From assembly GCA_963777495.1 (NCBI GenBank), contig CAVZQM010000004.1, forward strand, positions 426,715-490,714: a stretch of 64,000 nucleotides of DNA, in the 5' to 3' direction. Positions 16,021 through 60,520 of the stretch are shown piece after piece. A program made the translations under genes and the position numbers. The DNA comes from an uncultured Actinomycetes bacterium. GTDB taxonomy: Bacteria > Actinomycetota > UBA4738 > HRBIN12. Position 1 is the stretch's first letter. Each line of letters starts with the position of its first letter. The notes beneath the pieces were generated by a model. It saw only the letters and a program-made list of their open reading frames with translations, searched no databases and was not told where the DNA came from.

Positions 16021-16309
16021 GCTCACCGCGGCACCCGAACGTCGTCGTCCGCGTCGCGGCGGCGTACCGTGATCGCCTCGCCCATCTGCCTTGCCTTCCT
16101 CACCGGTACCACGAGGGGAAGGCACGACCGGGGAAGCACGGAGGGAGAGGTCCGTCGGGCGGAGCGGGGACTCCGTTCGACGGAGCCGCACAGTACCGCG
16201 GGGGTTCGATCGGAACCATCCCCAGACCGGCGGATTCTCTCTGGCGCGGGAGTGATGCGCAGGGGTCAGAAGGGGTGAGACGACGTGACCGGGGCTACTC
16301 CTTGAAGGG

Positions 16310-22133: not shown

Positions 22134-22281
22134 GTTGCCCCTCCTTTGCGCCACGAGCGATCGCTGAACGAGCGGGAGAGGCTGCAGGCTGAAGACCACT
22201 TCGCGAGTACGTCGGCACCATATCGACGGGTACCGACACGAACACGCGGGCGCGGCTGGACCGCGCTCCGCGGAAGGGAGC

Positions 22282-22330
22282 GGGTCGCCGGCCGGGGTTG
22301 ACGCACGCTATGGACCCCGACCGGCGACCC
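22282..22330 (-). terminator. Strong hairpin between the repeat-protein gene and the cpaE-like gene
   Basis: GGGTCGCCGGCCGGGG (22282-22297) pairs with CCCCGACCGGCGACCC (22315-22330). This is a 16-bp inverted repeat with one mismatch and a 17-nt loop. A weakly T-rich tract follows on the minus strand. Confidence 0.4.
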
Positions 22331-23888: not shown

Positions 23889-23953
23889 CGATATCTCCTT
23901 CTGTTCGAGCGTGCGACCCGTCGAGACGACGGATCGCGTTCAACACACCGGCG

Positions 23954-25018: not shown

Positions 25019-25164
25019 CGGTGTCCTCTCGATGAAATCCGCGGCCGGGGGACCGCGGTCACGTGCGTCCGGGGAAGGCTACCGCGCATCCCCCGGAACG
25101 CGCAAGTACCCACGTCACCGGCCTAGTCCAAGTGATCGATGCGTGCCACGACCCTTCGCCCGAC

Positions 25165-33957: not shown

Positions 33958-34860
33958 ATGGCACTCAGAGAGGCTCAGCGGGTCGGGCTGACGGACGAGC
34001 AGCGCCAACGGTTCGAACGCGACGGCTACCTGATCGTCGAAGACGCGCTCGACACGGCACTCATCGCGCGGTTGGTCGACGCCGTCGACCGGGTCTGGTC
34101 GGCCCATCGCGATGGTCCCCCGGTCGCGGGCGCCGATCCGCTGCACCTGCTCGCGTTCGTCGGACGCGATCCGCTCTTCCTGGAACTGCTCGACCACGAA
34201 CCGATCCTCCACCTGGTCGTCGACCTCTTGGGATGGAACGTGTTCGTGCACCACTGCCACCTCGACGTCCATCCTCCGATGGACGGGCCCTCGCCACGGC
34301 GGTGGATGTGGCATCAGGACGGCGGGCTGCAGAACCGCGACCTGGAGACGCATCCGCGGCCGAGGATGTCCGTGAAGGTCGCGTACTTCCTGTCGGACGT
34401 GAGCGAGCCGGGACGAGGGAACTTCTCCGTCCTGCCGGGCTCGCACCTGCGCGACACGTTGGAACGGCCGCCGGACGACGACAACGATCTCGCCGGAGCC
34501 GTTCCCGTCCTCGCCCGGCCCGGGACGGCGGTGCTGTTCGACCGGCGCCTGTGGCACATGCGCGGAGAGAACCGTTCGTCGCTGACCCGCCGGGCGCTGT
34601 TCTACGCGTACACCTACCGGTGGGTGCGGGCACGCGACGACATCCACATCCCGCCCGAACTGTTCGACACGATCACCCCGGTCCGCGCGCAGCTACTGGG
34701 TGCCGGCGCGAGCGCGGTCGGGCATTGGATGCCCGCGGACGTCGACGCCCCGCTGCGCACATGGGGGGACATCAACGGCGGCGGACCCGCTGGTCGACGC
34801 ACGGCGGCAAGCTCCCGCCGTTCGGATCCTTCAGTGCAGAGCCCCGTTACGAGCCGATAA
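33958..34860 (+). CDS. Phytanoyl-CoA dioxygenase (PhyH) family Fe(II)/2-oxoglutarate oxygenase
   Basis: Sequence QRQRFERDGYLIVEDAL..., WHQDGG, ...AVLFDRRLWHMRGEN. Confidence 0.85.
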   Translation: MALREAQRVGLTDEQRQRFERDGYLIVEDALDTALIARLVDAVDRVWSAHRDGPPVAGADPLHLLAFVGRDPLFLELLDHEPILHLVVDLLGWNVFVHHCHLDVHPPMDGPSPRRWMWHQDGGLQNRDLETHPRPRMSVKVAYFLSDVSEPGRGNFSVLPGSHLRDTLERPPDDDNDLAGAVPVLARPGTAVLFDRRLWHMRGENRSSLTRRALFYAYTYRWVRARDDIHIPPELFDTITPVRAQLLGAGASAVGHWMPADVDAPLRTWGDINGGGPAGRRTAASSRRSDPSVQSPVTSR

Positions 34861-35407
34861 GCTGATCGAGCGTCGCCTCCAGGTCGGGCTCCGAGAGCAC
34901 GCCGTGCACGACCTGGGCGGTGCCGTCGTCGTTCACGAAGACCCAGGCGGGCTGGTACGGAACGCCGAAGCGCGACCCAGAGCGAGCCGTCTTCAGACAC
35001 CGCTTGTGGGAACCTGAGGAGAACGCATCGACGAACCCTTGCATGGCGTCGGCGGAGTCGTGACCGCCGATGCCCAGGAACTCGACCCGACCTGCGTAGG
35101 CGCGCGAGACCCGCGCGACTTCAGGGGCTTCCCCCTGGCAGATCGTTCACCACGGCGCCCAGAACCAGATGGCAACATCCTTCCCGACGTAGTCGCTTCC
35201 GTTCACCGAGCCTCCCCCGAGGGAGGGAGCCGAGAAGTCCAGCACTTCGGGCACGCCGGCGGGAGGTTCGACGCTTCGAGACGAAGGGACGGCGGTACGG
35301 GTCGGGCCGTTCGCGGCGATGGGGTCGGTCGACGAGCACGCGACCGCGACCGCCGCTAGGGCGCCGATCAGAAGCGGTGCGAAGGTGAGCCTCGACGGAT
35401 GCTTCAC
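34847..35407 (-). CDS. TlpA/ResA-like thioredoxin-fold lipoprotein; in-frame TGA at the first Cys of the CxxC motif (candidate selenoprotein); also a short compensated double frameshift
   Basis: GTG start after AGAGG and a lipobox LIGALAAVAVAC. The active site reads DVAIWFWAPW-TGA-TICQGEAP, with the TGA at 35147-35149 in the same frame as the downstream ORF 34847..35044. The segment between about 35020 and 34978 reads better in another frame (LRFPQAVSEDGSLW). Confidence 0.7.
35116..35146 (-). promoter_or_regulatory. SECIS-like stem-loop immediately 3' of the in-frame UGA
   Basis: The mRNA reads UGA A CGAU CUGC CAGGGG GAAG CCCCUG AA GUCG. It can form a 4-bp lower stem, an internal loop, a perfect 6-bp upper stem and a GAAG apical loop. 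Confidence 0.45.
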
Positions 35408-35444: not shown

Positions 35445-36033
35445 GTGCCGAACATGCAACCGCTGCGGCGGGAAGACCACCCCGAACTCGAGGCGCTCTT
35501 CCGTCATTATGACGAAACCCTGAGCTTCGTCCCGAACAGCCTCTACACGATGGCCCGACGGCCCGAGATCCTGCGCGCGTTCAGCGAGTTGATCACCCAG
35601 ATCTGGAACTCGGGAACCCTCCCCACAGCCGCTGAAACCGCTGATCGGGATCGTCTCGAGCATCGCGGCGGGCTGCCGGTACTGTCAGGCGCATGAGGCC
35701 GTCGACGCTCGGGAGCGCGGCGTGCCCGACGAGAAGATCGCGCAGATCTGGAACTTCGAACGGTCGACCTTGTACGACGAGAGCGAGCGCGTGGCGCTGC
35801 GGTTCGCCCGAGACGCCTCCCTCGTGCCGAACGAGGTGACGCCGGAGCACTTCGAGGCGCTCCGTCTCCACTGGGACGACGGTCAGATCGTGGAGATGCT
35901 CGCCGTCGTCGGATTGTTCGGCTTCCTCAATCGGTGGAACGACACGATGGCGACGCAGATCGAAGATCGACCGACGGAGATCGCGCACGATCACTTCCGC
36001 GAGCATTGGGAGCCGGGCAAGCACGCGGGTTAG
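35445..36033 (+). pseudogene. AhpD/carboxymuconolactone-decarboxylase-family (peroxidase-related) protein, one frameshift
   Basis: The N-terminal part MPNMQPLRREDHPELEALFRHYDETLSFVPNSLYTMARRPEILRAF..IWNSGTLP is in one frame. The rest (LKPLIGIVSSIAAGCRYCQAHEAVDARERGVPDEKIAQIWNFERS...) is in another frame and carries the AhpD-type CxxC motif. The break is at about 35625. Confidence 0.75.
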
Positions 36034-38525: not shown

Positions 38526-40103
38526 TCACGTCACCTGCACGACCACCGTGTGGTAACCGGTGGCGCCGTCGGGGAAGGGGGGCGCGTTCGCCTCGGTCTG
38601 CAGCATCATCGTCTGGTCGGTCGCGCGGACCTGGAGCTCGTGTTGACCCGGCGTCGCATCCCACATGACGAGCCATTGCCGCCAGGTGTCGACCGTGTCC
38701 TGGGTCGACAGCTCCGCGGGCATCCACGGCCCGCCGTCGACGCGGAGTTCCACCGACTCGATCCCTCGATGCTGCGCCCACGCCACACCGGCGACCGGGA
38801 TCCTCCCCGCGGGGACGCGGCTTCCCCGCGGCGTGTCGATCCGCGACTGGGTCTTGATCGGCGCCTGCTCCGCCCACCCCCGTCGGATCCAATAGGCATC
38901 GAACGCGTCGAACGTCGTCAGTTCGAGCTCCACGATCCACTTCGTCGCCGAGACGTAGCCGTACAGCCCGGGAACGACCATCCGCACAGGGAACCCGTGA
39001 TCGAGCGGGCAGCGGTTCGCCGTTCATCGCGATCGCGAGCATCGCGTCGCGCCCGTCCATCACGACCCCCGTCGGGCTCCCGGCCGTGAAGCCGTCGACG
39101 GAGCGGGACACCAGCTGGTCGGCCGCGGGGTCGACGCCCGCCTCGTCCAGCAGGTCCTTCAGCGGAGCCCCCAGCCAGCGGGCGTTGCCCACGTACGCGC
39201 CCGCCGACCTCGTTGGACACACACGTGAGCGTGATGTCGCGTTCGATCAACGGACGTGCCATCAGCTGATCGAACGTCACGGTCAGTTCGCGTTCGACCA
39301 TGCCATGGATACGGAGCTGCCACTCTTCAGCCTTCACCGCCGGGACGAGCAGCGCCGTGTCCACGCGGTAGAAGGTCTCGTTCGGCGTGATGAACGGCGA
39401 GAGTCCCGGCACGCCGAGGTCGACGCCGGCCGTCGGCCCGGGAGGCCCGGCGGGCGAAGGAAGGTGGACCGCCGCACGCGATGCATCGGCCTCGAAGCGA
39501 CGACCGAACAGCTTGCCCGCGCCCCCCGCCGCGATGGCCGCCACCACGCCCGCCGCCCCGGTCATGAAGAACCGCCGCCGGTCGATCCCCGCGGGGTCGA
39601 CGGCTCCGGTGGGTCCTCGGGGAACGAGGAAGCCAGGACGCGCAGGAACACCGAGAGCATCAGCGCCCCGGCCAGCCCGCCGACCACGGACGGGATCGCG
39701 TCGATCGGATCGGCGGTGGGGCGCGTGAGGGCGGCCGTCACGCCGATCAGGGCGAAGACGGCGAGGCCAACGTAGCCGACCCACGGCCGCCGCAACGCGA
39801 CGACGCCGATCGATGCGGCGACCACCGCGAGCACGACGCCGATCCCGGCCAAGAGCACCGTCTTGTCGTTCGCGCCGAACGTCCTGATGGCGAAGCTCTT
39901 GAGCCACTCGGGCGTCGCGTCGATCGCGGCCCCGCCGACGGCGATGATCGGGGACGCGTCGGGATCGACGATCCCGGCCACCAGCTGCGCCACGCCGACC
40001 GCGACCGCCCCGCAGACCAACCCCACCACGATCCCCGGTCCGATCTGGTGAGCGGGCGTGGGGGCGACGGTGCGTCCGTGGGCGGAGCGAGCGTCTCGGC
40101 CAT
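38526..40103 (-). pseudogene. Membrane-anchored molybdopterin-dependent (sulfite-oxidase-family) oxidoreductase, at least 4 frameshifts
   Basis: N-terminal TM domain, then the Tat-like motif DRRRFFMTGAAG. The Moco domain follows (FITPNETFYRVDT...WQLRIHGMV...LTCVSNEVGG/AYVGNARWLGAPLKDLL...AIAMNGEPLP/LDHGFPVRMVVPGLYGYVSATKWIVELEL) and then the dimerisation domain. The pieces lie in 5 frame segments; one break at about 39008 is an extra C. Confidence 0.8.
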
Positions 40104-40374
40104 GGTCCCAGGATGCCGCACGGATGTTGCCGGACCCTTACGGTCCGCTTTCGCCGCGATACCGACGCTTCAGCCGGCCCCACTCGGGCAGGAGCGTCGA
40201 GGTCGCTCGGCTGGACACCGGCATCTCGGTGCCGGTCACGGCGCCAAGAGCCTAGCCGCTCGCCTCTGCCCGGGAGCTCCTGACGGCAGGGTGCGTTGAC
40301 GGTCGCGCGACCACGCCCGAGACTCGGGGCCAGACGGGACCGGATGCTCCGGTCCGCGTCGAGCTGGGGGATCG

Positions 40375-44897: not shown

Positions 44898-45710
44898 TCA
44901 GGCGGCGCGGCGGCGACCGGCTCCCCGCGACCGGAGCACGACCCACACCAGGACGGCCGCGACCGCCACGCCGCCCACCGCCGCCAGGATCGAGGGCTTG
45001 GGGGTGGGCACCACGGACGCGAGCCGCGATCGGAGACGCACCGGCTGGCGGAAGTCCCGGATCTGCCAGTCGCGTTCCTCGGCGATCTTTCGGAGGTCCT
45101 TGTCGGGATTGACCGCGATGGGCTGACCCACGGACTCGAGCATCGGCAGGTCGGTGATGGAGTCGCTGTACGCGAACGACTTCGAGAGGTCGATGCCCAC
45201 GCGCGACGCGATCTTCCTGATGGCCTCGGCCTTCTGTTCGCCGTACGCGTAGAACTCCAGACCACCCGTGTACCGGCCGTCGTCGCCGACCTCGGCACGG
45301 GTCGCGATCACGCCGCTGACGCCGAAGTGCCGGGCGAGCGGGCGAACGATCTCCTCGGGCGACGACGAGACGATGTAGATGCGCCGCCCCTCGCTCCGAT
45401 GGAGGTCCATGAGGTCCAGTGCCTCTTGGTAGACGTACGGGTCGATCACGTCGAGCAGGACGTCCTGCACCAGGTGCTCGATCTGCGAGCGGTCCCACCC
45501 TTTGGTGAGGGCCAGCATGCCTTCCTTCAGCCGCTCCATCTTGTTCTCGTCCGCCCCCACCAACAGGTAGACGAGCTGCGCGTACGCGCCGCGCAGGAGT
45601 TGGCCGCGCGACACCATGCCGGCGCGGTACAGCGGCCGGGAGAGCGCGAGCGACGACGACCGCGAGATGATCGTCTTGTCCAGGTCGAAGAACGCCGCTT
45701 CCATGGTCAA
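44898..45710 (-). CDS. HAD-IB family hydrolase (SerB-like) with C-terminal TM segment
   Basis: Sequence FFDLDKTII (motif I), ...IVSSSPEEIV..., ...AYSDSITDLPMLE.. (motif IV), with the tail AAVGGVAVAAVLVWVVL. Confidence 0.85.
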   Translation of the reverse strand: MTMEAAFFDLDKTIISRSSSLALSRPLYRAGMVSRGQLLRGAYAQLVYLLVGADENKMERLKEGMLALTKGWDRSQIEHLVQDVLLDVIDPYVYQEALDLMDLHRSEGRRIYIVSSSPEEIVRPLARHFGVSGVIATRAEVGDDGRYTGGLEFYAYGEQKAEAIRKIASRVGIDLSKSFAYSDSITDLPMLESVGQPIAVNPDKDLRKIAEERDWQIRDFRQPVRLRSRLASVVPTPKPSILAAVGGVAVAAVLVWVVLRSRGAGRRRAA

Positions 45711-45778: not shown

Positions 45779-46327
45779 CTATCGGCGGATCCGACCGATG
45801 TCGCCGCGGAAGCCTTTGATCCACGTGAGCTCGGCCTTCGCCAGCGACTCCTGTCGTTGGAGCATCGACGTGGAGACCGTCCGCCCCGGTCCCTTGTCGG
45901 CGGTGATGCGCGCACGCTCCGTCCTGATCGCGTCGAGCAGGTCGCGGATCGCGACCTCGCGCGCGTCCACCGCCTTGCGCGCGTCGGTCGCGGAGAGCAG
46001 ATGGACGAACCCCAGAGCCAGGCCGCCGTCCGTCTCGTACGGTTCCAGCGCCCCGGCGTGTTCCACGAGGCCGCGCGTCAACCGCTCGCGGCCCGCCTTC
46101 GTGATCCGGTACACGCGGCGATCGGGCCCCTCCGGTCCGTCTTGCGAGCGCCCCGTGATCAGTCCGTCGCGCTCCAACCGGCGAAGCACCTGATAGACGG
46201 ACGCCTTGCCGATCTCGACCCAGAACCCCATCGATCGCGCGCGGAACCGCTCGAGCAGGTCGTATCCGTACAGCGGCTCCTCCGACAGGAGCCCCAGCAC
46301 CACGACCTCCACCTTCGACGTCCCCAC
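45779..46327 (-). CDS. PadR-family transcriptional regulator
   Basis: Sequence VVVLGLLSEEPLYGYDLLERF......ASVYQVLRRLERDGLI......RRVYRITKAGRERL. A GTG start follows GGAAGGGAG. Confidence 0.8.
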   Translation of the reverse strand: MGTSKVEVVVLGLLSEEPLYGYDLLERFRARSMGFWVEIGKASVYQVLRRLERDGLITGRSQDGPEGPDRRVYRITKAGRERLTRGLVEHAGALEPYETDGGLALGFVHLLSATDARKAVDAREVAIRDLLDAIRTERARITADKGPGRTVSTSMLQRQESLAKAELTWIKGFRGDIGRIRR

Positions 46328-46459
46328 GCAACGGCTCCCTTCCTGACGAGGCGGCCACCGATCCACGGCACCCACTGGTCCGTCACGGACCAGTGGCACT
46401 CTAGTCCATAACGGACTAGAGCGCCACGAAGCTCGCGATGGAGTGCGTGCGGTGCACCC

Positions 46460-46861
46460 CTAGATCGATACGCGGCCGACGCAGGTCTCGCCGGTCGACG
46501 GGTTCGTCGCGCGTGCCACGAACCGGTCGGTTCCCGCCAGGTCGTTCGGGTGACGCTCGACCTCGAACGAGCCGCTCTGCCCGTGCGTGGTCCGCGTGCC
46601 CTGGAAGATACGCGCGCCGTTCTGCTTGATGCGGACGTTCCAGTTCTGCCCGTTCACGTTGGAGTCGACCTCGAACTCCACCTCCAGGCCGCCGTCGTCC
46701 GGCTTGGCCTTCAGCTTCCAGTCGGTCCGGCCGCTGCAAGGGCCTCGGGTGATCACTTCACCGTCGTTCCCGCCTCCACCGCCGGCCATCGCCGCGGGCG
46801 CCGTGGTCAGCAGCGAGATGCCCACCAGCGCGGCCACCAGGATCGTGCGTCGTTCCTTCAT
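46460..46861 (-). CDS. Small secreted protein (hypothetical)
   Basis: Signal peptide MKERRTILVAALVGISLLTTAPAAMA followed by a Gly-rich linker and a beta-rich body. I cannot assign a family. Confidence 0.5.
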   Translation of the reverse strand: MKERRTILVAALVGISLLTTAPAAMAGGGGGNDGEVITRGPCSGRTDWKLKAKPDDGGLEVEFEVDSNVNGQNWNVRIKQNGARIFQGTRTTHGQSGSFEVERHPNDLAGTDRFVARATNPSTGETCVGRVSI

Positions 46862-47030
46862 CGTGACTCCCCCTCATCTTCGGCGCGTCGGCTCTCGTCG
46901 CGCTCAGGTACTACGCACAGCATGCGGACGTTGCCCTCAGGGCCAGGGCAAGCTCGAGTAAAGAGACCGGTAAGGGGTTGAGACCGCGGAGAAAGCGTCA
47001 TCCGTGGGGCACCCGGGTACGCTGCTCGGC

Positions 47031-47125
47031 GGAGGCGTCAGGGTTCCTGGTGGGCCCCGCGGTCTTCAACACCGTTGTGGGGGCGCAAGCTCCCAGGCGG
47101 GTTCGATTCCCGTCCGCCTCCGCCA
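47031..47125 (+). tRNA. selC: tRNA-Sec (anticodon TCA), 95 nt with encoded CCA
   Basis: Hand-folded structure. Acceptor GGAGGCG pairs with CGCCTCC, followed by discriminator G and CCA. The anticodon loop is CTTCAAC with TCA at 47066-47068, on a 5-bp stem. The long variable arm has a 7-bp stem closed by a GCAA tetraloop (47078-47095). The T-arm is GCGGG TTCGATT CCCGT. Confidence 0.85.
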
Positions 47126-47223
47126 ACGTGTCTGCATATCGCCGCGACGAGCACCTCGAGGCTGTTTGCGGTGACGATGGAGCCAGCGGTACGCTCCATG
47201 CCCCCCGAAGATGGAGGAACCGG

Positions 47224-47940
47224 ATGCCCGACCTTGGGCTTGGCAACATCCACGGCAGCGCTCTGGGCGAACGAGGCGTCTCCAAACGCTTGGATGCCCT
47301 TGCGGATCTGGCACCACTCAAAGGCGACAGGCTGTTGGATGTGGGATGTGCGGCTGGTGAGTACACGAGAGTGTTGGCGGAAGGGTTCGATGCGACGGAC
47401 GCCATCGACATCGAGCCCGAGCGGTTGGCGGTGTTCTCTCAGGCCCTCACCCACTCGGCGATCGCCGACCGGATCCATGTCCTGAACATGTCCGCCGAGC
47501 AGCTGACGTTTCGGGACGGGGCGTTCGATGTCGTCACGGCCATCGAGACGCTAGAGCATGTCGTCGATCTCGACGCGGCGCTCGATGAGATGCGGAGGGT
47601 GCTGAAGCCGGGAGGGTACCTCCTGGTAACGGGACCCAACCGCTACTTCCCCCTGGAGACTCACGGATGGCTGTGGAAGGGTAAGCGCCACTCGCCAGCC
47701 TCGTTCCCGTTCCTGCCTTGGCTCCGTCCTGTGCATCGCAAGCTCGCAGACGCTCGCAGCTTCACGGTCCATTCGCTCCGTGAGCGGGTGGAGCCTCATG
47801 GCTTTCAGTTGATCGGCTCGTCGTACTTGATGCCGCCGTTCGACCGAAAGCTCAAAGCTCTACGGGCGCTCGACAAGTTGGAGCGCTCACCACTGCGATT
47901 CTTCGGGCTCACGCTGGTGATGGGCTTCCGAGCCGTCTGA
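47224..47940 (+). CDS. Class I SAM-dependent methyltransferase
   Basis: Motif I LLDVGCAAGEY, ...VVTAIETLEHVVD..., and post-II LKPGGYLLVTGPN. GC content is visibly lower than in flanking genes. The annotated ORF start at 46978 would run through the tRNA, so I chose the internal ATG. Confidence 0.8.
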   Translation: MPDLGLGNIHGSALGERGVSKRLDALADLAPLKGDRLLDVGCAAGEYTRVLAEGFDATDAIDIEPERLAVFSQALTHSAIADRIHVLNMSAEQLTFRDGAFDVVTAIETLEHVVDLDAALDEMRRVLKPGGYLLVTGPNRYFPLETHGWLWKGKRHSPASFPFLPWLRPVHRKLADARSFTVHSLRERVEPHGFQLIGSSYLMPPFDRKLKALRALDKLERSPLRFFGLTLVMGFRAV

Positions 47941-48031
47941 CGCACTCCCGAGCAACGGCTGGACGCCACCACCGAGGTCCCAGATCGAGTCTCGCCGTGC
48001 GCTGAGGATGCGCCTTCGGTCGACCTAATCG

Positions 48032-48060
48032 TTGACTTATTCCTATCTAATACATAGGGT
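48032..48060 (+). promoter_or_regulatory. Putative sigma-70-type promoter (TTGACT-17 nt-TAGGGT) with an overlapping 17-bp AT-rich palindrome
   Basis: TTGACT at 48032-48037 and TAGGGT at 48055-48060. The palindrome CCTATcTAaTAcATAGG lies at 48042-48058. AAGGAGG precedes the ATG at 48102. Confidence 0.4.
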
Positions 48061-48101
48061 TTGGCCACACGTGCGTTGCCGACCCCATAAGGAGGAGTCA
48101 C

Positions 48102-49134
48102 ATGTCTCGCCGCGCCCGCCTGATCCCCGTCGCCCTCGCCTCGCTCCTGCTCCTCTCGGCCTGCGGCAGCTCGTCGCCCTCCGAGAGCAGCGGTGACGGC
48201 GGTGGCGCCACCGGCGGCGAGGTCGCCCCCGAGTCCTGGTCGTTCACCGACGGATCCGGCAAGACCGTCGAGCTGGACGAGGTCCCGACCCGGATCATCG
48301 CCCACGCCTACGCGGCGGCCGCCCTGATGGAGTTCGGCATCAAGCCCATCGGCGTCTACGCCGACATGCCGATCGCCGACGACGTCGGCCTGCAGAGCGT
48401 CGACTTCACCGGCATCGAGGTGCTCGGCGAGGAGTGGGGCAAGATCGACGTCGGAGGCGGCCGCCGAACTGGCGCCCGACCTGATCGTCGCCGACTACTG
48501 GCCGGTCGAGGACGGCTACAGCGGCATGGAGGACGGCGTCGAGGAGAAGAGCAAGAAGCTCGCCGAGCTCGCGCCGGTGGTCGGTGCCGCGCAGGGCGAC
48601 TCGATCGTCGACCTGATCGACGGCTACGAGGCGCTCGCCGCCTCGCTCGGCGCCGACGTCGAGAGCGGCGACGCCGCGGCGGCCACGCGCCGACTTCGAG
48701 GCGGCGCGCGACGCGTTCACCGCGGCGGCGGAGGCCAAGCCGGAGCTGACCGCGCTCGCGATCAGCCCGTACGACCACGAGCTACGCGGTCGCCGTGCCG
48801 AAGTACGCGCCGGAGCTGCTCGACTTCCAGCGGTGGGGCCTCAACGTGATCGACCCGGCGAAGCCCGACCCCGAGTTCCCGTACTGGCAGTCGCTGAGCT
48901 TCGAGAAGGCCGACACGTACCAGCCCGACCTGCTGCTGTTCGACGACCGGAACTACCCCGGCAACTACGAGACCCTGGACAACGCAGCCGATCGCCGACA
49001 GCATCCGGGCGTTCGCGGCCGGCGCGTACACGACGTGGCCGGCGTACTGGCTGCACACGTACTCCGACTACGCCGAGCAGCTCCGCGCGCTGACCCAGGC
49101 GATCGACGCCGCCGACCCGCAGATCGGCGACTGA
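48102..49134 (+). pseudogene. Siderophore/iron-type ABC transporter substrate-binding lipoprotein, at least 4 frameshifts
   Basis: Lipobox LLLLSACG and pieces ...PTRIIAHAYAAAALMEFGIKPIGVY..., ...ELAPDLIVADYW..., ...YAPELLDFQRWGLNVID... and ...TWPAYWLHTYSDYAEQLRALTQAI.... The frame order is 0,1,2,0,1. Confidence 0.8.
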
Positions 49135-49149
49135 ACGCAAGCGACGGCC

Positions 49150-50189
49150 GACCTGGCGGTCCGCGACCTCGTCGCGGACCCGACACGCACGGCTCGCGGC
49201 CGTGCTCGTCGCGCTCGTCGGTGTGCTGTTCGTCGTGTGCTTCTTCAGCATCACGATGGGGTCGCGGACGATCACGCTCGCGACGATCTGGAAGTCGTTC
49301 ACCGACTTCGACCCGAGCGTCGGCGTCCGAGACCGTGATCCGCGAGATGCGCGTGCCGCGAACGCTGCTCGGCATCACCGCGGGCGCCGCGTTCGGGCTG
49401 AGCGGCGCGATCCTGCAGGGCATCACCCGCAACCCGCTGGCGGACCCCGGGCATCATGGGCATCAACGCGGGCGCGGCCGCCTTCGCGATCGTCCTGGGC
49501 GCGGTCCTGCTTGCGGCGTCGACCAGCTCGGCCTCTAGATCTGGATCGCGTTCGTCGGCGCCGGCCTCGCGACGGTCGCGGTCTACGGGGTCGCCTCGCT
49601 CGGCCGCGAGGGCGCGACGCCGGTGAAGCTGGCGCTCGCCGGCGCGGCGCTCACGGCGGCATTGACCACGGTGACGACGGCGCTCGTCTCTGACCGATAT
49701 CGACGCGTTCAACGAGCTGCGCTTCTGGCAGGTCGGCTCGCTCGCGGGCCGCTACATGGAGGTCTTCTGGCAGACGGCGCCCTTCATCGTGCTCGGCATC
49801 GTGGCGGCGCTCTGCACCGGGCGGGCACTCAACGGACTGGCGCTCGGCGAGGACGTCGCGCTCGCGTTGGGACAGCGCGTCCGCCCGGCGCGCGTGGTGA
49901 TGTTCGTGACGGTCGCCGTTCTCTGCGGCGCGGCGACGGCGGCGTGCGGCCCGATCGCGTTCGTCGGGCTGGTCGTCCCGCACCTCGCGCGGCTGATGCT
50001 GCGGCCCCGACTACCGCTGGATCCTGCCGTACTCGATGGTGCTCACGCCGATCGTGCTGTTGCTCGCGGACATCGTCGGGCGCGTCGTGCGTCGCACCCG
50101 GCGAGCTCCAGGTCGGCGTCGTGCTCGGCGTGCTCGGCGCGCCGGTCTTCATCGTCCTCGTCCGCTACCGCACGATGACGGAGCTCTGA
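49150..50189 (+). pseudogene. FecCD-family ABC permease 1, multiply frameshifted (start approximate)
   Basis: Pieces ...VIREMRVPRTLLGITAGAAFGLSGAILQGITRNPLADPG.., ..ELRFWQVGSLAG.., ..GEDVALALGQRV.. and ..GVVLGVLGAPVFIVLV.. lie in several frames. Confidence 0.7.
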
Positions 50190-50191
50190 CC

Positions 50192-51246
50192 GTGCGGTCC
50201 TCGGATCGGGTCACGCCGATGGAAGCCGTGACGCGAGCATCGGTCGGCCCGGCGCCGGCGCTCGGTGGTCGTCACGGCGACGCTCGGCGCCGTCGTCGCC
50301 GCGCTCTTCGTGCTCACGCTGATGATCGGGAGCTACGTGATCGGCCCGTGGGACGTGCTGCGTCTCGTCGCTCCATCTCCGGGACGAACCGTCGATCGAC
50401 TTCGTCGTGCGCGAGCTCCGGCTGCCGACCGCGTTGACGGCGCTCGGGGTCGGGCTGGCGCTCGGGGTCTCCGGGCTGTTGTTCCAGAAGCTGTTCGCCA
50501 ACCCGCTCGCCTCGCCCGACTTCGTCGGCGTCTCGTCGGGCGCGAGCCTGTTCGCGGTCGCGGCGATCCTGTTGCTCGACGTCGAGAGCATCGGCGTCTC
50601 GATGGCCGCGCTCGTCGGGGCGATCGTCAGCTCGGTGCTCGTCTACGTGCTCGCCTGGCGCGACGGCATCTCCGGCTACCGCTTCATCCTGATCGGTATC
50701 GGCGTGTCGGAGCTGATGCTCTCGATCGTCGGCTACCTGCTCGCCAAGGCCGACATCTACGACGCACGCGAGGCGATGACGTGGCTCGTCGGCTCGGTGG
50801 GTCAGGCCGGCGCGGGCGAGCTGACCGCGTTGATCGTCGCCGTCGCCGTCCTGCTGCCCGGTGGCGCTCTTGTTGGACCGCCCGCTGCGGACCCTCGAGC
50901 TGGGCGACGACGCGGCCGAGGCGTTGGGCGCGCGCGTCGAGGCATCGCGGCTGGCGCTGATCGCCGTGTCCGTCGTCCTCATCGCGTTCGCGACCGCCGC
51001 GGCCGGACCGCTGATGTTCGTCGCGCTGATCGCCGGGCCCGTCGCTCGCCGCCTGCTCGGTCCCGCGTCGGGCGGCATCCTCGCGGCCGCGCTCGTCGGG
51101 CGCGATCGATCGTGCTCACGTCCGAGCTGGTCGCCGTGCACGTGCTGCCGATCGCGCTGCCGACCGGCGTCGTCACCGGCGCGATCGGCGCGCCGTACCT
51201 GATCTGGCTGCTGGCGACGACGAACCGCGAAGGGCGGGGCGGATGA
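50192..51246 (+). pseudogene. FecCD-family ABC permease 2, multiply frameshifted
   Basis: Pieces ...VRELRLPTALTALGVGLALGVSGLLFQKLFANPLASPDFVGVSSGASL..., ...LELGDDAAEALGARVEASRLALIAV... and ...LPTGVVTGAIGAPYLIWLL... lie in different frames. The stop overlaps the ATPase ATG. Confidence 0.7.
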
Positions 51247-52070
51247 CGCTCCGCGACGCCCACGAGCTGCGCGCCGAGAACCTCACCCTCGGGTACGACG
51301 TCGAGCGACGTCATCGCTCGACCTCGACGTCGACATCCCGACGCGGAAGATCACGATCGATCGTCGGCGCGAACGCCAGTGGGAAGTCCACGCTGCTGCG
51401 CGGTCTCGCGCGCCTGTTCGCCCCGCGTGGTGGCCAGGTCATCCTGGACGGCCGGGCCGTGCACGACATGAAGACCGTCGACGTCGCCAAGGTGCTCGGC
51501 CTGTTGCCGCAGGAGCCGGTGGCCCCGGACGGCATCACGGTCGGCGACCTGGTCGGCCGCGGTCGCTATCCCCACCAAGGGTGGTTCCGCCGCTGGAGCA
51601 GCAAGGACGACCAGGTTGTGGCGACCGCGCTCGCGGCGACAGGAACCGCCGACCTGGTCGATCGTCGGGTGGCCGAGCTGTCGGGTGGACAGCGCCAGCG
51701 GGTGTGGGTCGCCATGGCGCTCGCCCAGGACACCGACCTCCTGCTGCTCGACGAGCCCACGACGCACCTGGACATCAGCCACCAGGTGGACCTGCTCGAC
51801 CTCCTGACCGATCTCAATCGCACGTCCGGCACCACGATCGTCGTCGTGCTGCACGACCTGAACCTCGCCTGTCGTTACGCGGATCACCTGATCGCGATGA
51901 AGGACGGCGCGATCGTCGCGGAGGGTTCGCCGTGCGACGTGATCGACGCCGGGCTAGTCAAACAGGTCTACGGGATGGCGTGCGAGGTCGTGCCCGACCC
52001 GGTCAGCGGCACCCCGATGATCATCCCTCGCGGGCGTCATCACGCCGCCGACCAGCGCAACTCGTTATAG
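51243..52070 (+). pseudogene. ABC transporter ATP-binding protein (FepC-like); ORF uninterrupted but about 17 codons are out of frame between two compensating indels
   Basis: Walker A GANASGKST, the signature LSGGQRQRV, and Walker B LLLLDEPT. The residues between LGYDVE and SIVGAN read RRHRSTSTSTSRRGRSR in frame, but TSSLDLDVDIPTRKIT (the expected family sequence) in the +2 frame. Confidence 0.85.
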
Positions 52071-52342
52071 GCCGAACGGCAAACGGATTAAGACCTTCGT
52101 CGGGTTGTTCCGTGCGGCCGGGGGATGGAACACTGCGCATCCCAACTACGACGAATTGTGCATGTGCGGGCTCCCCCGCTCCTGCCCCAGGAGGTCAACC
52201 GGACATGAGTCTTGCTCGTTCCCCCCGGCCTGTTTACCGTGCAACGAACCGACCGAGGGGATCCCGTTCCCTCCTCATCGCCATCGCGACCCTCGCGGTC
52301 GTCGCGTCGATGCTTCCGTTGGCCCCCGCCGCCTTCGCGGCC

Positions 52343-55290
52343 GGCAACCAGGCCGTCCAGATCGACGGCGTGGACGACCCACGGCATCACGCTCGGGACG
52401 AACTGGTTCGCTCGGCGCGTCCACGTTCACGCTGGAGCTGTGGTTCAAGCGGACGGGCAACGGCACGCGCCACGGTGACGGGGTCGTCGGCGCACACCGA
52501 CTCGCTCCCGCTGATCACGAAGGGGCGTTCCGAGAGCGATGGCGGCGTGCAGGACGTGAACTACTTCCTGGGGATCGACCAATCGAGCGGCGAGCTCGAG
52601 GCCGACTTCGAGGACACGGCGTCGAGGCGCGAACCACCCGGTGAACGGCGTCACCGCGGTCAGCCTGAACGTCTGGCACCACGCGGCCGCGACGTTCAAC
52701 GGGTCGCAGTTCTGCCTCTACCTCGACGGCGTGCTCGACGGGACCTGTGTCGCGACGACCACGATCCCGCAGTCCGACTCCACCCACCGCCCCGCGATCG
52801 GCACCGCCTTCAACTCCGGCAAGCCAGCGCGAACGGGTCGTTCGCACGGTCAGGTCGACGAGGCCCGCATCTGGAACGCCGCCCGCACCCAGGCGCAGAT
52901 CCAGGCGAGCATGAACACCGAGGTGACGTCCGGCGCCGAACCTCATCGGCCGTTGGGGCATGAACGAAGGCTCGGGCACCACCACCGCCGGCTCGGTCGG
53001 CGGCATCAACGGCGCGCTGTCGACGGGCACGAGCTGGGTCGCCGGCGTGCCGGTGCTCGACCCGCCGCCGACCCCGGGCGGCAACCAGGGCGTCCAGATC
53101 GACGGCGTGGACACCCACGGGATCAGGCTCGGATCGTCCGGCTCGCTCGGGGCCAGTCAGTTCACGCTCGAGCTGTGGTTCAAGCGCACCGGCCAGGGTG
53201 TCTCGCTCTCGACTGGGTCGGGCGGCAACACGGACTCGATTCCGCTGATCACGAAGGGTCGATCGGAGAGCGACGGCGGCGTGCTCGACACGAACTACTT
53301 CCTCGGACTCGACTCCGATACCGGCGAACTCGAGGCGGACTTCGAGGACACGCTGAACGGCGGGAACCATCCGGTCAACGGTGCGACCAGGTGAGCCAGA
53401 ACGTTTGGCACCACGGAGCCGCCACGTTCAACGGATCGCAGTTCTGTCTCTATCTCGACGGCGTGCTCGACGGGACCTGCGCCGCGACGACCGCTACTCC
53501 GCAGTCCAACTCGACGCACATCCCCGCGATCGGCACCGCCACCAACTCTCTCGCGTCGGGCAACGTCTCGCTCGGCTCCTTCGCGGGCCAGGTCGACGAG
53601 GTCCGCATCTGGAACGTCGCTCGCACGCCAGGCGGAGATCCAGGCGAGCATGAACCAAGAGCTCGACGTCCGGCGCCAACCTGATCGGTCGCTGGGGCCT
53701 GAACGAGGGCACCGGGTCGACGGCGACCGGGTCCGTCGGACCGACCGGGACGCTCTCGACCGGCACGAGCTGGGTCGCCGGTGCCCGGGCGATCGGCACG
53801 CCTCCCCCCACGCCGGGGAACCAGGCACTGCAGTTCAGACGGCACCAACCAACACGTCACGTTCGGCGCCGCCCCAGGGCTCGGAGCGTCGACGTTCACG
53901 ATCGAGACCTGGTTCAACCGCAGCGGCATCGGCGACAGCACCAGTACGGGCAGTGGCGGGATCCTCAACGCCATCCCCCTCGTCACGAAGGGACGCTCGG
54001 AGAGCGCCGACGGCGACACCCGCGACATGAACTACTTCCTGGGCATCGACGCCTACACCGGCGTGCTGGTGGCGGACTATCGAAGAAGGTCACGGCCAGA
54101 CGGCCCAGGGCAGAACCACCCGGTCTCCGGCGCGACACCGGTCAGCCAGAACGCCTGGCACCACGCAGCCGCACGTTCGACGGCACGATCCTGCGCATGT
54201 ACCTGGACGGCGTGCTCGACGGGACCGTGAACGTCGGCGCCAACCGCGGACCGCGCTCCGACTCGGCACAGCACGCCGGTCTGGGCACCGCCATGAACTC
54301 GACGACCGGCGCGACCGCTGGGTTCTTCGCCGGGACGTTCGACGAGGCGCGCATCTGGAACGTCGCGCGTTCGGCCGGCGACATCCAAGGCTCGATGAAC
54401 AGCCGAGCTGACGTCCGGCGCCGGGCTGATCGGTCGCTGGGGCATGAACGAAGGCACCGGCACGACGGTCGGCGGCTCCGTCGGCGGCATCAACGGCTCG
54501 GCGGTCAACTCGGCCGAGCGTGGGTCACGGCGCCCCGGCGCTCGGCGCCCCGCCGCCGACCGGCGACGGGTCCGGCATCACCCTGCCCGGGAACCGTGGG
54601 CAGCCACGTCGACCTCGGCCCGGGCAGCGTTGCGCTCGGCGCGACGAACTACACGCTCGAGCTCTGGTTCAAGCGGACCGAACACCGGAGTCGCCACGCT
54701 GACGGGCTCAGTGTCACCGGGCCTGACCTCGGTCATCCCGCTGATCACGAAGGGCCGCTCGCAAAGCGACGGCGGCACGATGGACGTCAACTACTTCCTG
54801 GGCATCGACACGGCCACGAACCGCTTGGCCACGGACTTCGAGGAAGACGAGAACGGGAACCCGCGCGGGCACGAACCACGGGTTCGTGGGGAATACCGCC
54901 GTGCCCATGAACGTGTGGACGCACGCAGCCGTGACGTTCAACGGTTCGGTCTTCCGCCTCTACCTCAACGGCGTGCTCGACGGCACCAGCCCGGTGATCA
55001 CCGAGCTGCCCCAGGACAACTCCGCCCACCGGGTGGGACTGGGCACGGCGTTCAACGACGCGGGCAGCGCCCGGCCGGAGCGTTCGCCGGACTGATCGAC
55101 GAGGCGCGCATCTGGAACGTCGCCCGCACGGGCACCGAGATCGCCGACGCCATGAACACCGAGATCAACGCGGGCACCGGCCTGATCGGCCGCTGGGGCC
55201 TGAACGAGGGCATCGGGCACCACCACCGCCGGTTCCGTCGGCGACGTCAACGGCACGCTGGTCGGAAGCGCGACCTGGGGCGAGGGCGCC
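52343..55290 (+). repeat. Four tandem LamG_3-encoding modules (period about 735 nt)
   Basis: The block ttcacgctcgagctgtggttcaagcg and its flanks recur near 52425, 53161, 53895 (diverged) and 54653. Confidence 0.75.
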
Positions 55291-58200
55291 CCGCTCGACG
55301 TGGGCGAGGCGCCGGACGCGCCCGTCAACGTGGCTCCGACCGACAACGCGACCAACGTCACGCTCCCGCCGACGCTCGACGTCACCGTGTCCGACCCCGA
55401 CAGTGCGACCGTCGACGTCACCTTCTTCGGCCGTCCCGTGTGGCGGTGCCGGCACCGGCGAGGACTTCACGATCATGACGATCCCCGACACGCAGTTCTA
55501 TTCGGAGAACGTCCGTCAACTCGCGAACGCGATCTACACGGCCCAGATGAACTGGATCGTGAGCTCGAAGGCCTCGCTGAACACGGTGTTCGCCACGCAC
55601 CTCGGCGACATACGAGAACTACGACACGGTCGAGGCCGAGTGGCAGCGGGCCACCGTGCAACCAGGCCATCCTCGACACGAACGGGGTGCGGAACGGCGT
55701 GCAACACCGGGCAACCACGACATCGCCAACGCGGCGAACGTCAGCGTCGCGCACTTCTACGACCAGTACTTCCCGCCGTCCCGCTACGAGGGGTTCCCCT
55801 GGTACGGCGGCTACCTCGGCGACCCGACCGACGGCGTCGCCGACGGCGCCGTGAACCGCCTGAACAAGGACAACTACGCGCTGTTCTCCGCCGGCGGGAT
55901 GGACTTCCTGGTCATCCAGCCTCGAGCACGACATGCCCGTCGTACGCGACGACGTGGGCGCAGAACCTGATCGACGCGTTCCCGAACCGGCACGTCATCA
56001 TCAGCACGCACGCGTTCGTCAACGCAGACCGGCGCACCGGCCGACCTCGCCCGTCAACCGTGCCGACGGCAGTCCGCCGAGGCCGTGTGGCAGCAACCTG
56101 ATCAGGCCGAACTGCGAGGTCTTCATGATCGTGAACGGCCACTACCACGGGCGAGGGCCGGCGCGACCGACACTGAACAGCTGCGGCGAGCCGGTCTTCC
56201 AGCTCAACTCCGACTACCAGGACCTCGCCGAACGGCGGGAACGGCTACCTCCGCTACTACACGTTCAAGCCGTCCCTCGACCGGATCGACGCGTTCACGT
56301 ACTCGCCGACCGCTCAACTCGTTCGACACGTCCCAGACTGACGCCGACAGACCAGTTCACGCTTGACCTGGGAGATGGACGGCGCCGAGCCAGTTCACGC
56401 AGATCGGGACCGTGCAGGACGTCGCCTCGGGCGCGCACGCCACGATCCAGTGGAACGGCCTGAACGCGAACACCGAGTACGAGTGGTACGCGGTCGCGAG
56501 CGACGGCTCGCAGTCGACGGACGGACCCACCTCCAGCTTCACGACCGAGACCCCGCCGCCCACGCCGCCGGTCGTCGACTCCGTGACGATCAACCAGGCG
56601 ACCCCGCGCACGAACGACACCCTGTCGGTCACCGTGCAGAGCCACGACGTCAACAACGACCCGATCACGCACCAGTACCAGTGGATCCGCAACGGCAGCG
56701 ACATCGCCGGGCAGACCGGGCCGACGCTGAACCTGGCCACGGCCGGCAACGGCAACAAGGGCGACACGATCGCGGTGCGGGTGACCGCGAACGACGGCAC
56801 GGCCAACAGCGCGCCGGTGACGTCATCGGCGGTGACGATCCTGAACACCGTGCCGACGGCGACCGTCGGACTCAGCCCGACGCACGCCGCAGGCCGACCC
56901 AGACGGTCACGGCCACGGCAACGCGGGCGGACGTCGACGGCGACACCGTGACGCTCACCTACGTGTGGAAGCTCAACGGCGCCACCGTCAAGACGACGGC
57001 GGCATCCTCGAGCCTGACCGACACCCTCGATCTCTCGACCACGAGCGCCGCCAACGGCGACGTCCTGAGCGTCGAGGTCACGCCGAACGACGGCACGGCC
57101 AACGGCACGATGGTGTCCGCCACGGCCACCGTCGACATCCCGATGGTCTCGCCCATCCCCGACAACACGTTCGAGGTGGGCGGCGAACCAGGGTGAACGC
57201 GTTGCTCCGCGTCGGCAACACCATCTACATCGGCGGCGACTTCACGCAGTTGCTCGGCCCCAACGGAGAGATCGTGAAGCGGCAGTACCTCGCCGCGGTC
57301 GACGCGACCACCGGCCAGCCGTTGCCGTGGAATCCGGGCGCCGACGGGATCGTGCATTCCCTGGCCGCTTCTCCGGACGGCACCACGATCTACGCCGCCG
57401 GACAGTTCCGGCACGTCGGCGGTCTCGTCCGCACCAGGATCGCGGCGATCGACGCCACCACGGGCGCGGTGCGCGCGTGGACCCCAACGGTCGGCGCCAT
57501 CGGCCGTGCGATCGTGACGATCGGGAATCGCGTCTACGTCGGGGGCATCTTCACGACGCGTGGCGCGGCCAAGGTGGACCGACGACCACCCGCAACCGCC
57601 TGGCAGCGTTCGACGCCACGACCGGCGCCCTCACGACATGGAACCCGAACGTCAACCAGCAGCCGCGAGACATGCTGGTCACGCCGGACGGCCGCATCAT
57701 CGTCGTCGGGAGGCTTCACGACGGTCGGCGGCTCTCCGAGCAACTACATCGCGTCGCTCGACGCCACCACGGGTGCGCTGCTGCCGTGGAACGATCACCC
57801 GGTCGACCAGGTCCAGGGGATCGCCCAGGGTCCCGGGCAGATCTTCATCGGGAACGGCACCGGAGCTCCGCCGGGCAACCAGGTCGTGGCGTACGACATC
57901 AACACCGGCACCCAGCAGTGGCTCGCGCAGGGCGACGGTGACGTCCAGGACGTGACGTACCTGGACGGCGTCGTCTACGCCGGCGGCCACTTCGACACGA
58001 TGTCGGGCCAACCTGTCGGTCAGGCTCGCCGCCTTCAACGCGGCCACCGGAGCGCTCCGCGATTGGGGCGCCACCGTCGATGGGTCCATCGCCGTCGTCA
58101 CGATGATCGCGGGCGGAGGCAAGCTCTACGTCGGCGGCGGCTTCACGGAGGTGACCGGCGTCGACCGACAGCGACTACGCCGTCTTCAGCGGCGCGCCCG

Positions 58201-59356
58201 CGCCGAACACGCCTCCGGTCGTCGACTCGGTCGTGATCGACCAGACGTCGCCGGGAACGAACGAGACGCTGACGGCGACCGTGACCGCGCACGACGCGGA
58301 CGCGAACCCGCTCACGTACGCGTACCAGTGGACCCGGAACGGCACCGACATCGCCGGGGCCACCGGCCCGTCGCTGAACCTGGCGACGGCGGGTAACGGC
58401 GACAAGGGCGACCTGATCCGGCTGCGCGTGACCGCCAACGACGGCACCGCGACCTCGCCGGCCGGTGACGTCTGCCCCGGTGACGGTGGCGAACACCGTC
58501 CCGACGGCCACCGTCTCGCTGAGCACGCAGTCGCCCGGCACGAACACGACGCTGACGGCCACCGCGACCAGGGCGGACGCGGATGCCGGCGACACGGTCA
58601 CGCTCACGTACCTCTGGACCGTGAACGGCACGCCCCGTCGGACGACGACCACGACGAGCCTGACCGACACGTTCGACCTGTCGGTCGCCGGCAACGGTGA
58701 CCCCGGTGACACGATCGTCGTCACCGTGACGCCGAACGACGGCACCGCGAACGGGACGGGCGTCTCGGACACGGCGCACGGTGGCGACGGGGGCGACCCC
58801 GCCGATCTTCGCCGACGAGTTCACGAACCTGAACAACTGGATCAACGTCACCCGCGTCACGATCGACAACGCGATCGGCTCGCCGGCCGCGCCGTCGGCT
58901 CGGGCCGCGGCGTCGAACCAGACGGCGTTCGCCTACCGGGACCTCGGGACCTCGACGATGACGCCGTGCGTGAGCGCGAACGTCAACGTGGCCTCGGGCA
59001 CCGGCGATCGACCTGTTCCGGCTGCGTTCGGCCGGCAACGGGCCGGTCATCAAGGTCTTCGTCCACGCGAACGGGACGCTGCAGCTCCGCTCGGACTTCG
59101 GCGGCACCACGCGCAACTCCGGCGTCGCAGGTGGGCACCGGCTGGCACTCGCTCGAGCTCTGCGGCACGGTCGGGATCCAACACGACGTGGGACCTGATC
59201 CGCGACGGCGTGGTGATCGTGAACGACTGGGCCGCGAACACCGGCACCGCCGCGGTGACCCGGGTCCAGATCGGTGACACCGCCGCCAAGACGTTCACGG
59301 TGAACTTCGACCACGTCCGCGTGGACCTGGTCCCCGGTGAGGGCGGCGGCCGTGGC

Positions 59357-60520
59357 GACACCCAGGGTCCGACGACCCCGGGCACGCCCACCGGCACCAG
59401 CCCGTCCAACGGCACGATCCAGATCAGCTGGAGCGGCATCCACCGATGCCTCGCCGCCGATCACCTACCGGGTCTACCGCGACGGCAACCCGACCTCGAT
59501 CGGTCGACCACGTCCACGAGCTTCACCGACCCCGGCCTCACGCCGGGCACGAGCCACACCTACACGGTGGATGCCGTCGACTCGCTCAACAACCCGAGCC
59601 TGATGAGCGGGACGTCGGCGTCGATCACGGTGATCGGCCCTCGCCGACACCCAGGGTCCGACGACCCCGGGCACACCGACCGGCTCGAGCCCGTCCACCG
59701 GCATGATCCAGATCCAGTGGACGCGCATCGACCGATGCGTCGCCGCCGATCACCTACCGGATCTACCGCGACGGCAACCCGACCTCGATCGGACAGACGA
59801 CCTCGCTCACGTTCATGGATCCGGGGCTGACCCCCGGCACCAGCCACACCTACACGGTGGATGCGGTCGACTCGCTGAACAACCCGAGCCTGATGAGCGG
59901 CGTCTCGGCCTCGATCACGGTGAGCGCTCCCGCCGACACCCAGGGTCCGACGACCCCGGGGACGCCCGACCGGGAGCAGCCCGTCCAACGGCACGATCCA
60001 GATCAGCTGGACGCGCATCGACCGATGCGTCGCCGCCGATCACGTACCGGGTCTACCGCGACGGCAACCCGACCTCGATCGGTTCAGACCACGTCCACGA
60101 GCGTTCACGGACCCAGGCCTCACGCCGGGGACCAGCCACACGTACACCGTGGATGCGGTCGACTCGTTCAACAACCCGAGCTCGATGAGCGGCGTCTCGG
60201 CGTCGATCACGGTGAGCGGACCGCCGGCCGACACCCAGGGTCCGACGACCCCGGGGACACCGACCGGCGCCAGCCCGTCCGCCGGCATGATCCAGATCCA
60301 GTGGTCGGCGTCGACCGACGCGTCGCCGCCGATCACGTACCGGATCTACCGTGACGGCAACCCGACCTCGATCGGGCAGACGACCTCGCTCACGTTCATG
60401 GATCCGGGCCTCACGCCGGGGACCAGCCACACGTACCGCGTGGACGCGATCGACTCGCTGAACAACCCCAGCCTGATGAGCGGGACGTCGGCGTCGATCC
60501 TGGTGAGCGGTGGGCCGCCC
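59357..60520 (+). repeat. Four tandem FN3-encoding repeats (units start 59357, 59646, 59935, 60230; period 289-295 nt)
   Basis: Each unit starts gacacccagggtccgacgaccccgg and encodes DTQGPTTPGTPTG.SPS.G.IQI.W..STDASPPITYR.YRDGNPTSIG.TTS..F.DPGLTPGTSHTY.VDA.DS.NNPS.MSG.SASI.V. Only the fourth unit is fully in frame. Confidence 0.85.

Follow-up and report, generated by a model that had tools for sequence, protein, structure and literature searches.

A 7/6 selenocysteine tRNA gene and a candidate TlpA-like selenoprotein gene on one contig of an uncultured actinobacterium

The bacterial selenocysteine (Sec) pathway proceeds through SerRS, SelA and SelD and ends with delivery by SelB at a UGA codon accompanied by a SECIS element. 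In the tRNA-Sec of Escherichia coli, encoded by selC, the acceptor is built of eight Watson-Crick pairs and the T-stem of 5 bp. There are also tRNA-Sec look-alikes in nature whose cloverleaves are unusual. Bacterial tRNA-Sec is generally described as an 8/5 form (PMC5330540, PMC13449736), and a 7+6 fold has been reported for mycobacteria (RNA Biol 2026, PMC13449736). Binding of SelB requires a 13-bp acceptor/T helix (PMC13449736), and the discriminator G73 is an identity element of the SerRS/SelA type (PMC5330540). Among selenoproteins, a thiol:disulfide interchange or "thiol-disulfide isomerase-like" family (TlpA-like, cd02966, UxxC) has been catalogued (PMC1794560, PMC13188914).

A tRNA-Sec gene was identified at 47031-47125 on the plus strand of the window, that is, the whole 64,000-nucleotide stretch analysed (64 kb, about 70 % G+C). 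Judged from sequence, this is very likely (probability about 0.92) a functional selC encoding the selenocysteine tRNA of an actinobacterial organism, with a target UGA at 35147-35149 on the same contig. The organism very probably makes selenoproteins, which would place it among the minority of Actinomycetota using selenocysteine. The gene and its parts are as follows.

47031-47125, plus strand: selC, tRNA-Sec(UCA), 95 nt, from ARAGORN, Rfam RF01852, the minimum-free-energy fold and covariation
47031-47037 and 47115-47121, plus strand: 5' and 3' strands of the acceptor, GGAGGCG/CGCCTCC, 7 bp
47038-47040, plus strand: linker UCA
47041-47058, plus strand: D-arm, with a D-stem over 7 positions and a 4-nt loop UGGU
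47059-47075, plus strand: anticodon arm, 5-bp stem and 7-nt loop CTTCAAC
47066-47068, plus strand: anticodon TCA, reading UGA
47078-47095, plus strand: variable arm, 7-bp stem and GCAA loop
47096-47114, plus strand: T-arm GCGGG/TTCGATT/CCCGT, extended to 6 bp
47122 and 47123-47125, plus strand: discriminator G73, then the encoded CCA

An earlier note on this DNA had placed a tRNA-Sec at 47031-47125 and had named tRNA predictors as its test; ARAGORN and Rfam both call tRNA-Sec. ARAGORN predicted tRNA-SeC(tca) at exactly these positions (+) as the sole tRNA in the 64-kb window. The model RF01852 (tRNA-Sec) matched 47031-47121 over its full length (model positions 1-91) with 74.8 bits, compared with a gathering score of 47 (E = 1.7e-13), and was the sole Rfam family above its threshold within the window. 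The minimum-free-energy fold of selC is the cloverleaf with a 7/6 split (-49.8 kcal/mol, z = -2.5 versus shuffles). The other structural claims of that note were borne out as well: the TCA anticodon (47066-47068), whose loop CTTCAAC is carried by a 5-bp stem, the 7-bp variable arm with its GCAA tetraloop at 47078-47095, the GGAGGCG/CGCCTCC acceptor, the discriminator G and the encoded CCA are all present, and the T-arm is present with a sixth pair added. The likeness to E. coli selC in length and arm order also holds, but with a 7+6 split here.

The D-stem contains one internal mismatch (14:25), the anticodon stem is closed by a G.U pair, and C stands at position 38, which is A in most relatives. 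G73 is invariant across the actinobacterial tRNA-Sec alignment. A scan of the surroundings of selC, not tuned to high-GC actinobacteria, gave neither a sigma-70-like promoter nor an intrinsic terminator.

Base errors had been said to affect this contig, and many window genes are indeed broken by frameshifts (48795-51243, 35454-36033, 38529-40137, 52300-55500 and 61200-64000). The frameshifted genes include FecCD permeases, an AhpD-like gene, a molybdopterin oxidoreductase and LamG-repeat ORFs. Indel-type errors of this kind are typical of unpolished long-read assembly, and with so many of them any single base is less certain than usual. The T-C eighth acceptor pair of selC had accordingly been read in the earlier note as either a real mismatch or such an error. 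The first half of that reading stands and the second does not, since the pair is non-canonical in every actinobacterial copy compared.

A degenerate tRNA-Sec pattern scan of a genome collection yielded at least 120 loci from many phyla, from which 116 tRNA-Sec genes were extracted by ARAGORN. Among the matches listed, all 29 tRNA-Sec genes of Actinomycetota have a non-canonical eighth acceptor pair, which is U.C in 25 of them. A base error as the cause of the T-C pair is ruled out by this lineage-wide conservation; the pair is a clade feature that belongs to a 7/6 fold. A strict 8/5 split does not describe selC, whose eighth pair is U.C. Instead, the T-stem gains a sixth pair, between C 47114 and G 47096, and U8 is unpaired, so that a 7-bp acceptor and a 6-bp T-stem give 13 bp in total. 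A sixth G-C or G-U T-stem pair is possible in 28 of the 29 actinobacterial copies among the matches listed. Outside the phylum, the eighth pair is non-Watson-Crick in 48 of 87 tRNA-Sec among the matches listed, mostly G.A, G.G or A.C; in these matches, what textbooks give as an "8 bp" acceptor often consists of 7 bp and one non-canonical pair.

The 7/6 cloverleaf was evaluated by covariation in an alignment of 23 actinobacterial tRNA-Sec genes. In these sequences pairing holds in 93.5 % of cells, compensatory changes are seen at 13 pairs and none of 500 shuffles is as good, while slid controls reach 58 % paired at most. Pairing is complete (100 %) in the acceptor, T and variable helices, and all six column-wise testable pairs of the variable stem covary. 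The sixth T-stem G-C pair is invariant in the 23 homologues and covariation speaks neither for nor against it. Position 14:25 of the D-stem is unpaired in 22 of 23 relatives, so the mismatch is itself conserved.

The nearest selC relatives among the matches listed are from uncultured Actinomycetota/Acidimicrobiia MAGs (L001, L036, L083, L090 and L100), and the L001 gene is identical to that of the window at 89 of 95 positions. The sequence GGAGGCGT...GGCGGGTTCGATTCCCGTCCGCCTCC is the same or nearly the same in every actinobacterial copy listed, including those of Mycobacterium, Streptomyces, Micromonospora and Pseudonocardia, and with these four genera the window gene agrees fully in its acceptor and T-arm sequences. 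The 7/6 tRNA-Sec reported in 2026 as mycobacterial may be the phylum-wide form of Actinomycetota, including Acidimicrobiia-like lineages. An actinobacterial tRNA-Sec with a non-canonical eighth acceptor pair is to be read as a 7/6 fold and not as an error.

The genes next to selC are the following.

44898-45704, minus strand: HAD hydrolase in the upstream flank, from Pfam
45779-46399, minus strand: PadR regulator in the upstream flank, from Pfam
46460-46861, minus strand: small secreted protein in the upstream flank
47224-47940, plus strand: class I SAM-dependent methyltransferase, with Pfam Methyltransf_11/23/25 matches from residue 24-38 of the protein starting at 47224

The long ORF 46978..47940 begins with TTG and overlaps the tRNA, and the earlier note had called its start spurious. 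This is upheld: the methyltransferase domain starts only after ATG 47224, which is preceded by a GGAGGA Shine-Dalgarno sequence. The true start is most likely ATG 47224 and not TTG 46978, and the annotated ORF should be shortened to that start. Beyond the HAD hydrolase, an M15 peptidase and a sulfatase lie on the plus strand; downstream of selC, the methyltransferase is followed by an unknown ORF and a frameshifted FecCD/ABC transporter. The upstream order of HAD hydrolase, PadR regulator and small secreted protein is kept beside selC in L001 (79 % amino-acid identity for the HAD hydrolase) and partly kept in L083. The 3' flank of selC (47126-52070) is not common to the otherwise syntenic L001 (1-1238) and is a variable flank. 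The reading of selC as an integration site or island is unsupported: the search for an att-like repeat of the tRNA 3' end within the window gave nothing beyond 18-mers with 3 mismatches, as expected by chance, and no integrase turned up there.

Several repeat-rich and multidomain genes were also found in the window. At least 8 tandem-like units of 735-800 nt with a Laminin_G_3/concanavalin-A-like lectin domain occupy 52300-55300 and 61200-64000, and a separate set of about 290-nt repeats occupies 59350-60520. The two sets probably represent one or two giant surface proteins fragmented by frameshifts. A 1122-aa protein with eight DUF11 repeats (16269-19634, minus strand; Pfam E = 1.5e-169) adjoins a Tad/Flp-pilus-like cluster at about 12.5-22.3 kb, which was recognised by eye except for its CpaE/ParA-like ATPase (21069-22307). 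A 516-aa secreted protein (22392-23939, minus strand) contains low-complexity repeats (…GGDV[DTS]QSN…T…Q…) with Cys-rich spacers and gave no significant Pfam match. A 1204-aa signalling protein (25036-28647, plus strand) combines a zinc ribbon, an adenylate/guanylate cyclase, an AAA_16 ATPase and TPR repeats.

The search for selA, selB and selD used the proteins of the selD<->selC-selA-selB cluster of Mycobacterium asiaticum (L117), verified by the NCBIfam equivalogs TIGR00474, TIGR00475 and TIGR00476. None was found in the 64-kb window by tblastn (best E = 0.12, noise), and most of the large window ORFs, scanned with Pfam and NCBIfam, showed no SelA, SelB or SelD. A sel gene lies inside the 8-kb locus around selC in only 32 of the at least 120 loci listed, and in none of the five closest relatives listed. 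The same tRNA-Sec sequence type adjoins the verified selA, selB and selD in M. asiaticum and tblastn-identified sel homologues in Streptomyces and Micromonospora. Missing sel genes beside selC are normal for the lineage; selC may sit far from selA, selB and selD, and absence at the contig level says nothing on the trait.

A candidate target of the tRNA was identified 12 kb from selC on the same contig. The features of this region are listed below.

34847-35407, minus strand: candidate selenoprotein, a TlpA/ResA-like thioredoxin-fold thiol-disulfide oxidoreductase, from Pfam, NCBIfam and homologues
35147-35149, minus strand: in-frame TGA and putative Sec codon, in place of the first Cys of the CxxC redox motif
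35122-35137, minus strand: hairpin 1, CAGGGG-GAAG-CCCCUG, starting 12 nt downstream of the U of UGA, a spacing that makes it a SECIS candidate
35101-35117, minus strand: hairpin 2, CGCGCG-GGUCU-CGCGCG, with the loop G 38 nt after the U of UGA
35454-36033, plus strand: AhpD/CMD-like peroxidase-related protein with CxxC, frameshift-split, from Pfam CMD and NCBIfam TIGR01926 and NF053654

The minus-strand ORF ends in ...VAIWFWAPW and continues after the TGA in the same frame with TICQGEAPEV..., giving the motif FWAPW-U-TIC. The gene has a GTG start at 35407, where the orthologue L124 has ATG, and a TAA stop at 34847-34849; the N-terminus of the protein carries a signal peptide and a lipobox-like sequence. 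Pfam AhpC-TSA, Thioredoxin and Redoxin matches of the read-through protein span the TGA, and two Cys-containing database homologues, aligned across it, read FWAPWCTIC. No NCBIfam equivalog model reaches its cut-off for this protein: the ResA/TlpA models stay below theirs (best, the ResA subfamily, with 54.6 bits where 170 are needed), and only 23 bits are reached with the WAxxUGC selenoprotein model.

A metagenome scan recovered 80 loci related to the candidate gene, in 79 of which (all but L148) the motif was found. The aligned codon is TGA in 49, TGC in 25 and TGT in 5 of these 79 homologues. The closest loci with the motif all have TGA and a conserved downstream frame, and the TGA with its 60-nt context is identical in the independent short-read contigs L121, L122 and L124. 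Two 1-nt indels that compensate each other, one near 35019 and one near 34975, distinguish the window copy from the short-read orthologues. Around the 80 metagenomic loci, flanks of +/-3 kb yielded neither a sel gene nor a tRNA-Sec. Under a lenient GC3 filter, the TGA at 35147-35149 is the sole in-frame TGA of the window with both coding and redox-motif context. Of 24 confident window genes, 11 end with TGA as a normal stop, so recoding would be site-specific and there is no global reassignment of UGA. The earlier note had concluded that the organism decodes UGA as Sec, and this is supported by the TGA at the catalytic Cys of a thioredoxin-fold gene, its presence in 49 of 79 homologues and the SECIS-like hairpins.

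The AhpD-like gene is divergent from the candidate selenoprotein gene, and the pairing is kept in L124, the closest orthologous contig (93 % amino-acid identity). It begins 46 nt from the candidate selenoprotein start and encodes an all-Cys GCRYC motif; its best NCBIfam match is "YciW-related (seleno)protein" (NF053654), with 63 bits and a cut-off of 310.

The region downstream of the codon folds better in Sec forms than in Cys forms (mean z -1.36 versus -0.09, Mann-Whitney p = 6e-6), despite the lower GC of the Sec forms. With a cut-off of -6 kcal/mol, hairpin 1 occurs in 87 % of Sec forms versus 30 % of Cys forms, and a stable hairpin 2 in 85 % versus 56 %. Hairpin 2 keeps a single register in 35 of 47 Sec-type sequences and covaries: 87.9 % of its cells pair, 4 of its pairs show compensatory changes and none of 500 shuffles does as well, while slid controls are 64 % paired or less. 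In its pair 36:44 (GC 28, UA 8, AU 2), one base is the synonymous third position of an Ala codon and the other a non-synonymous position four codons further along. Hairpin 1 occurs in three registers among the Sec-type sequences, which blurs column-based covariation and explains why RNAalifold gave no consensus for all 47 Sec-type downstream regions. In the candidate selenoprotein region no Rfam family matched, even with a permissive threshold. Hairpin 1 has a spacing like that of the E. coli fdhF SECIS and hairpin 2 a GGU loop like its own, which at 38 nt from the UGA lies farther away than in fdhF. The recoding signal may be bipartite, with two conserved hairpins of which the GGU-loop one lies about 38 nt from the UGA; if so, the SelB-SECIS geometry would be unlike the E. 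coli fdhF model.

The candidate may be a TlpA-like UxxC lipoprotein that is exported and occurs commonly in metagenomes from soil and sediment, which would imply selenium redox chemistry outside the cytoplasm. Gene callers will cut the TlpA-like gene (34847-35407) short at the UGA. The wider proposal that joins a phylum-wide 7/6 tRNA-Sec in Actinomycetota with a TlpA-like UxxC lipoprotein and its bipartite recoding signal is tentative, and we put the odds against its holding in full.

The selC transcript folds into an actinobacterial tRNA-Sec with a 7-bp acceptor stacked on a 6-bp T-stem and a UCA anticodon. By analogy with the established bacterial pathway, it would be charged with serine by SerRS via G73 and the long variable arm, and the serine would be converted to Sec by SelA with selenophosphate from SelD. 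The Sec-tRNA-Sec would be brought to the ribosome by SelB and not by EF-Tu, with SelB recognising the 13-bp acceptor/T helix and a SECIS hairpin just downstream of the UGA. The UGA at 35147-35149 would be its target, with Sec in place of the attacking Cys of CxxC. The genes encoding SelA, SelB and SelD would have to lie elsewhere in the genome.

Three other readings were weighed against a functional selC. If selA, selB and selD had been lost, the gene would be a relic and Sec would no longer be inserted, a course made plausible by how often bacteria, Actinobacteria among them, lose the Sec trait (PMC1794560) and by the failure to find sel genes in the 64-kb window. The tRNA, however, is intact, scores far above the Rfam threshold and keeps every helix that covaries in its relatives. 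The selenoprotein gene on the same contig keeps the TGA, a conserved open downstream frame and hairpins specific to Sec forms, whereas its decay or a switch to TGC would be expected after trait loss. Unlinked sel genes are moreover normal, as none of the five closest relatives listed has any within the 8-kb selC locus, and a relic is improbable.

Still less probable is a tRNA of another identity that resembles tRNA-Sec, such as a Cys- or Ser-inserting UGA suppressor (selC-like or allo-tRNA). Look-alikes of this kind are known, and the 7-bp acceptor departs from the textbook 8/5 form; but the same sequence type adjoins selA, selB and selD in M. asiaticum and their homologues in Streptomyces and Micromonospora, and the window UGA, at a Sec/Cys redox position with hairpins after it, bears the signature of insertion that depends on SelB. 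The discriminator is G73 and not U73 (PMC5330540), and the acceptor/T helix has the 13 bp that SelB binding requires (PMC13449736). Least credible of all is a sequencing error or nonsense mutation at 35147-35149 in a Cys-type gene, which would leave the tRNA alone in the window. The contig does contain errors, with two 1-nt indels in this very gene and several other genes frameshifted, yet the identical TGA and 60-nt context in L121, L122 and L124, the TGA in 49 of 79 homologues and its standing as the sole in-frame window TGA with coding and redox-motif context argue against it; conservation of the TGA effectively refutes this reading. A functional selC with a target on the same contig is the reading we prefer.

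Compared with described systems, both selC and the TlpA-like gene belong to already known families; the value of the finding lies in annotation, and the current view of Sec biology is unchanged. The TlpA-like protein shares with the catalogued UxxC family the TlpA/ResA thioredoxin fold, Sec at the N-terminal CxxC position, pairs of Sec and Cys homologues and a SECIS-like hairpin after the UGA. Its membership of the subfamily of the exemplar MGB1650493.1 (PMC13188914) is putative, and the window subfamily differs in its FWAPW-U-x-x-C motif and two conserved downstream hairpins. With E. coli selC the window gene shares the length, arm order, anticodon, G73, 13-bp acceptor/T domain and presumed SerRS/SelA/SelB pathway, but it is split 7+6 with U8 unpaired and its D-stem has the conserved internal mismatch 14:25. 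In contrast to the selD<->selC-selA-selB cluster of M. asiaticum, it has no adjacent selA, selB or selD. The closest likeness is to the mycobacterial and actinobacterial 7/6 tRNA-Sec, with which it shares the UCA anticodon, a length of about 95 nt, the 13-bp acceptor plus T helix as 7+6, the GGAGGCG acceptor, the long variable arm, the long D-stem with its UGGU loop, G73 and the encoded CCA, although the host here is an uncultured Acidimicrobiia-like lineage of Actinomycetota and not Mycobacterium. The gene at 47031-47125 is an ordinary member of the bacterial tRNA-Sec family, in its published 7/6 form.
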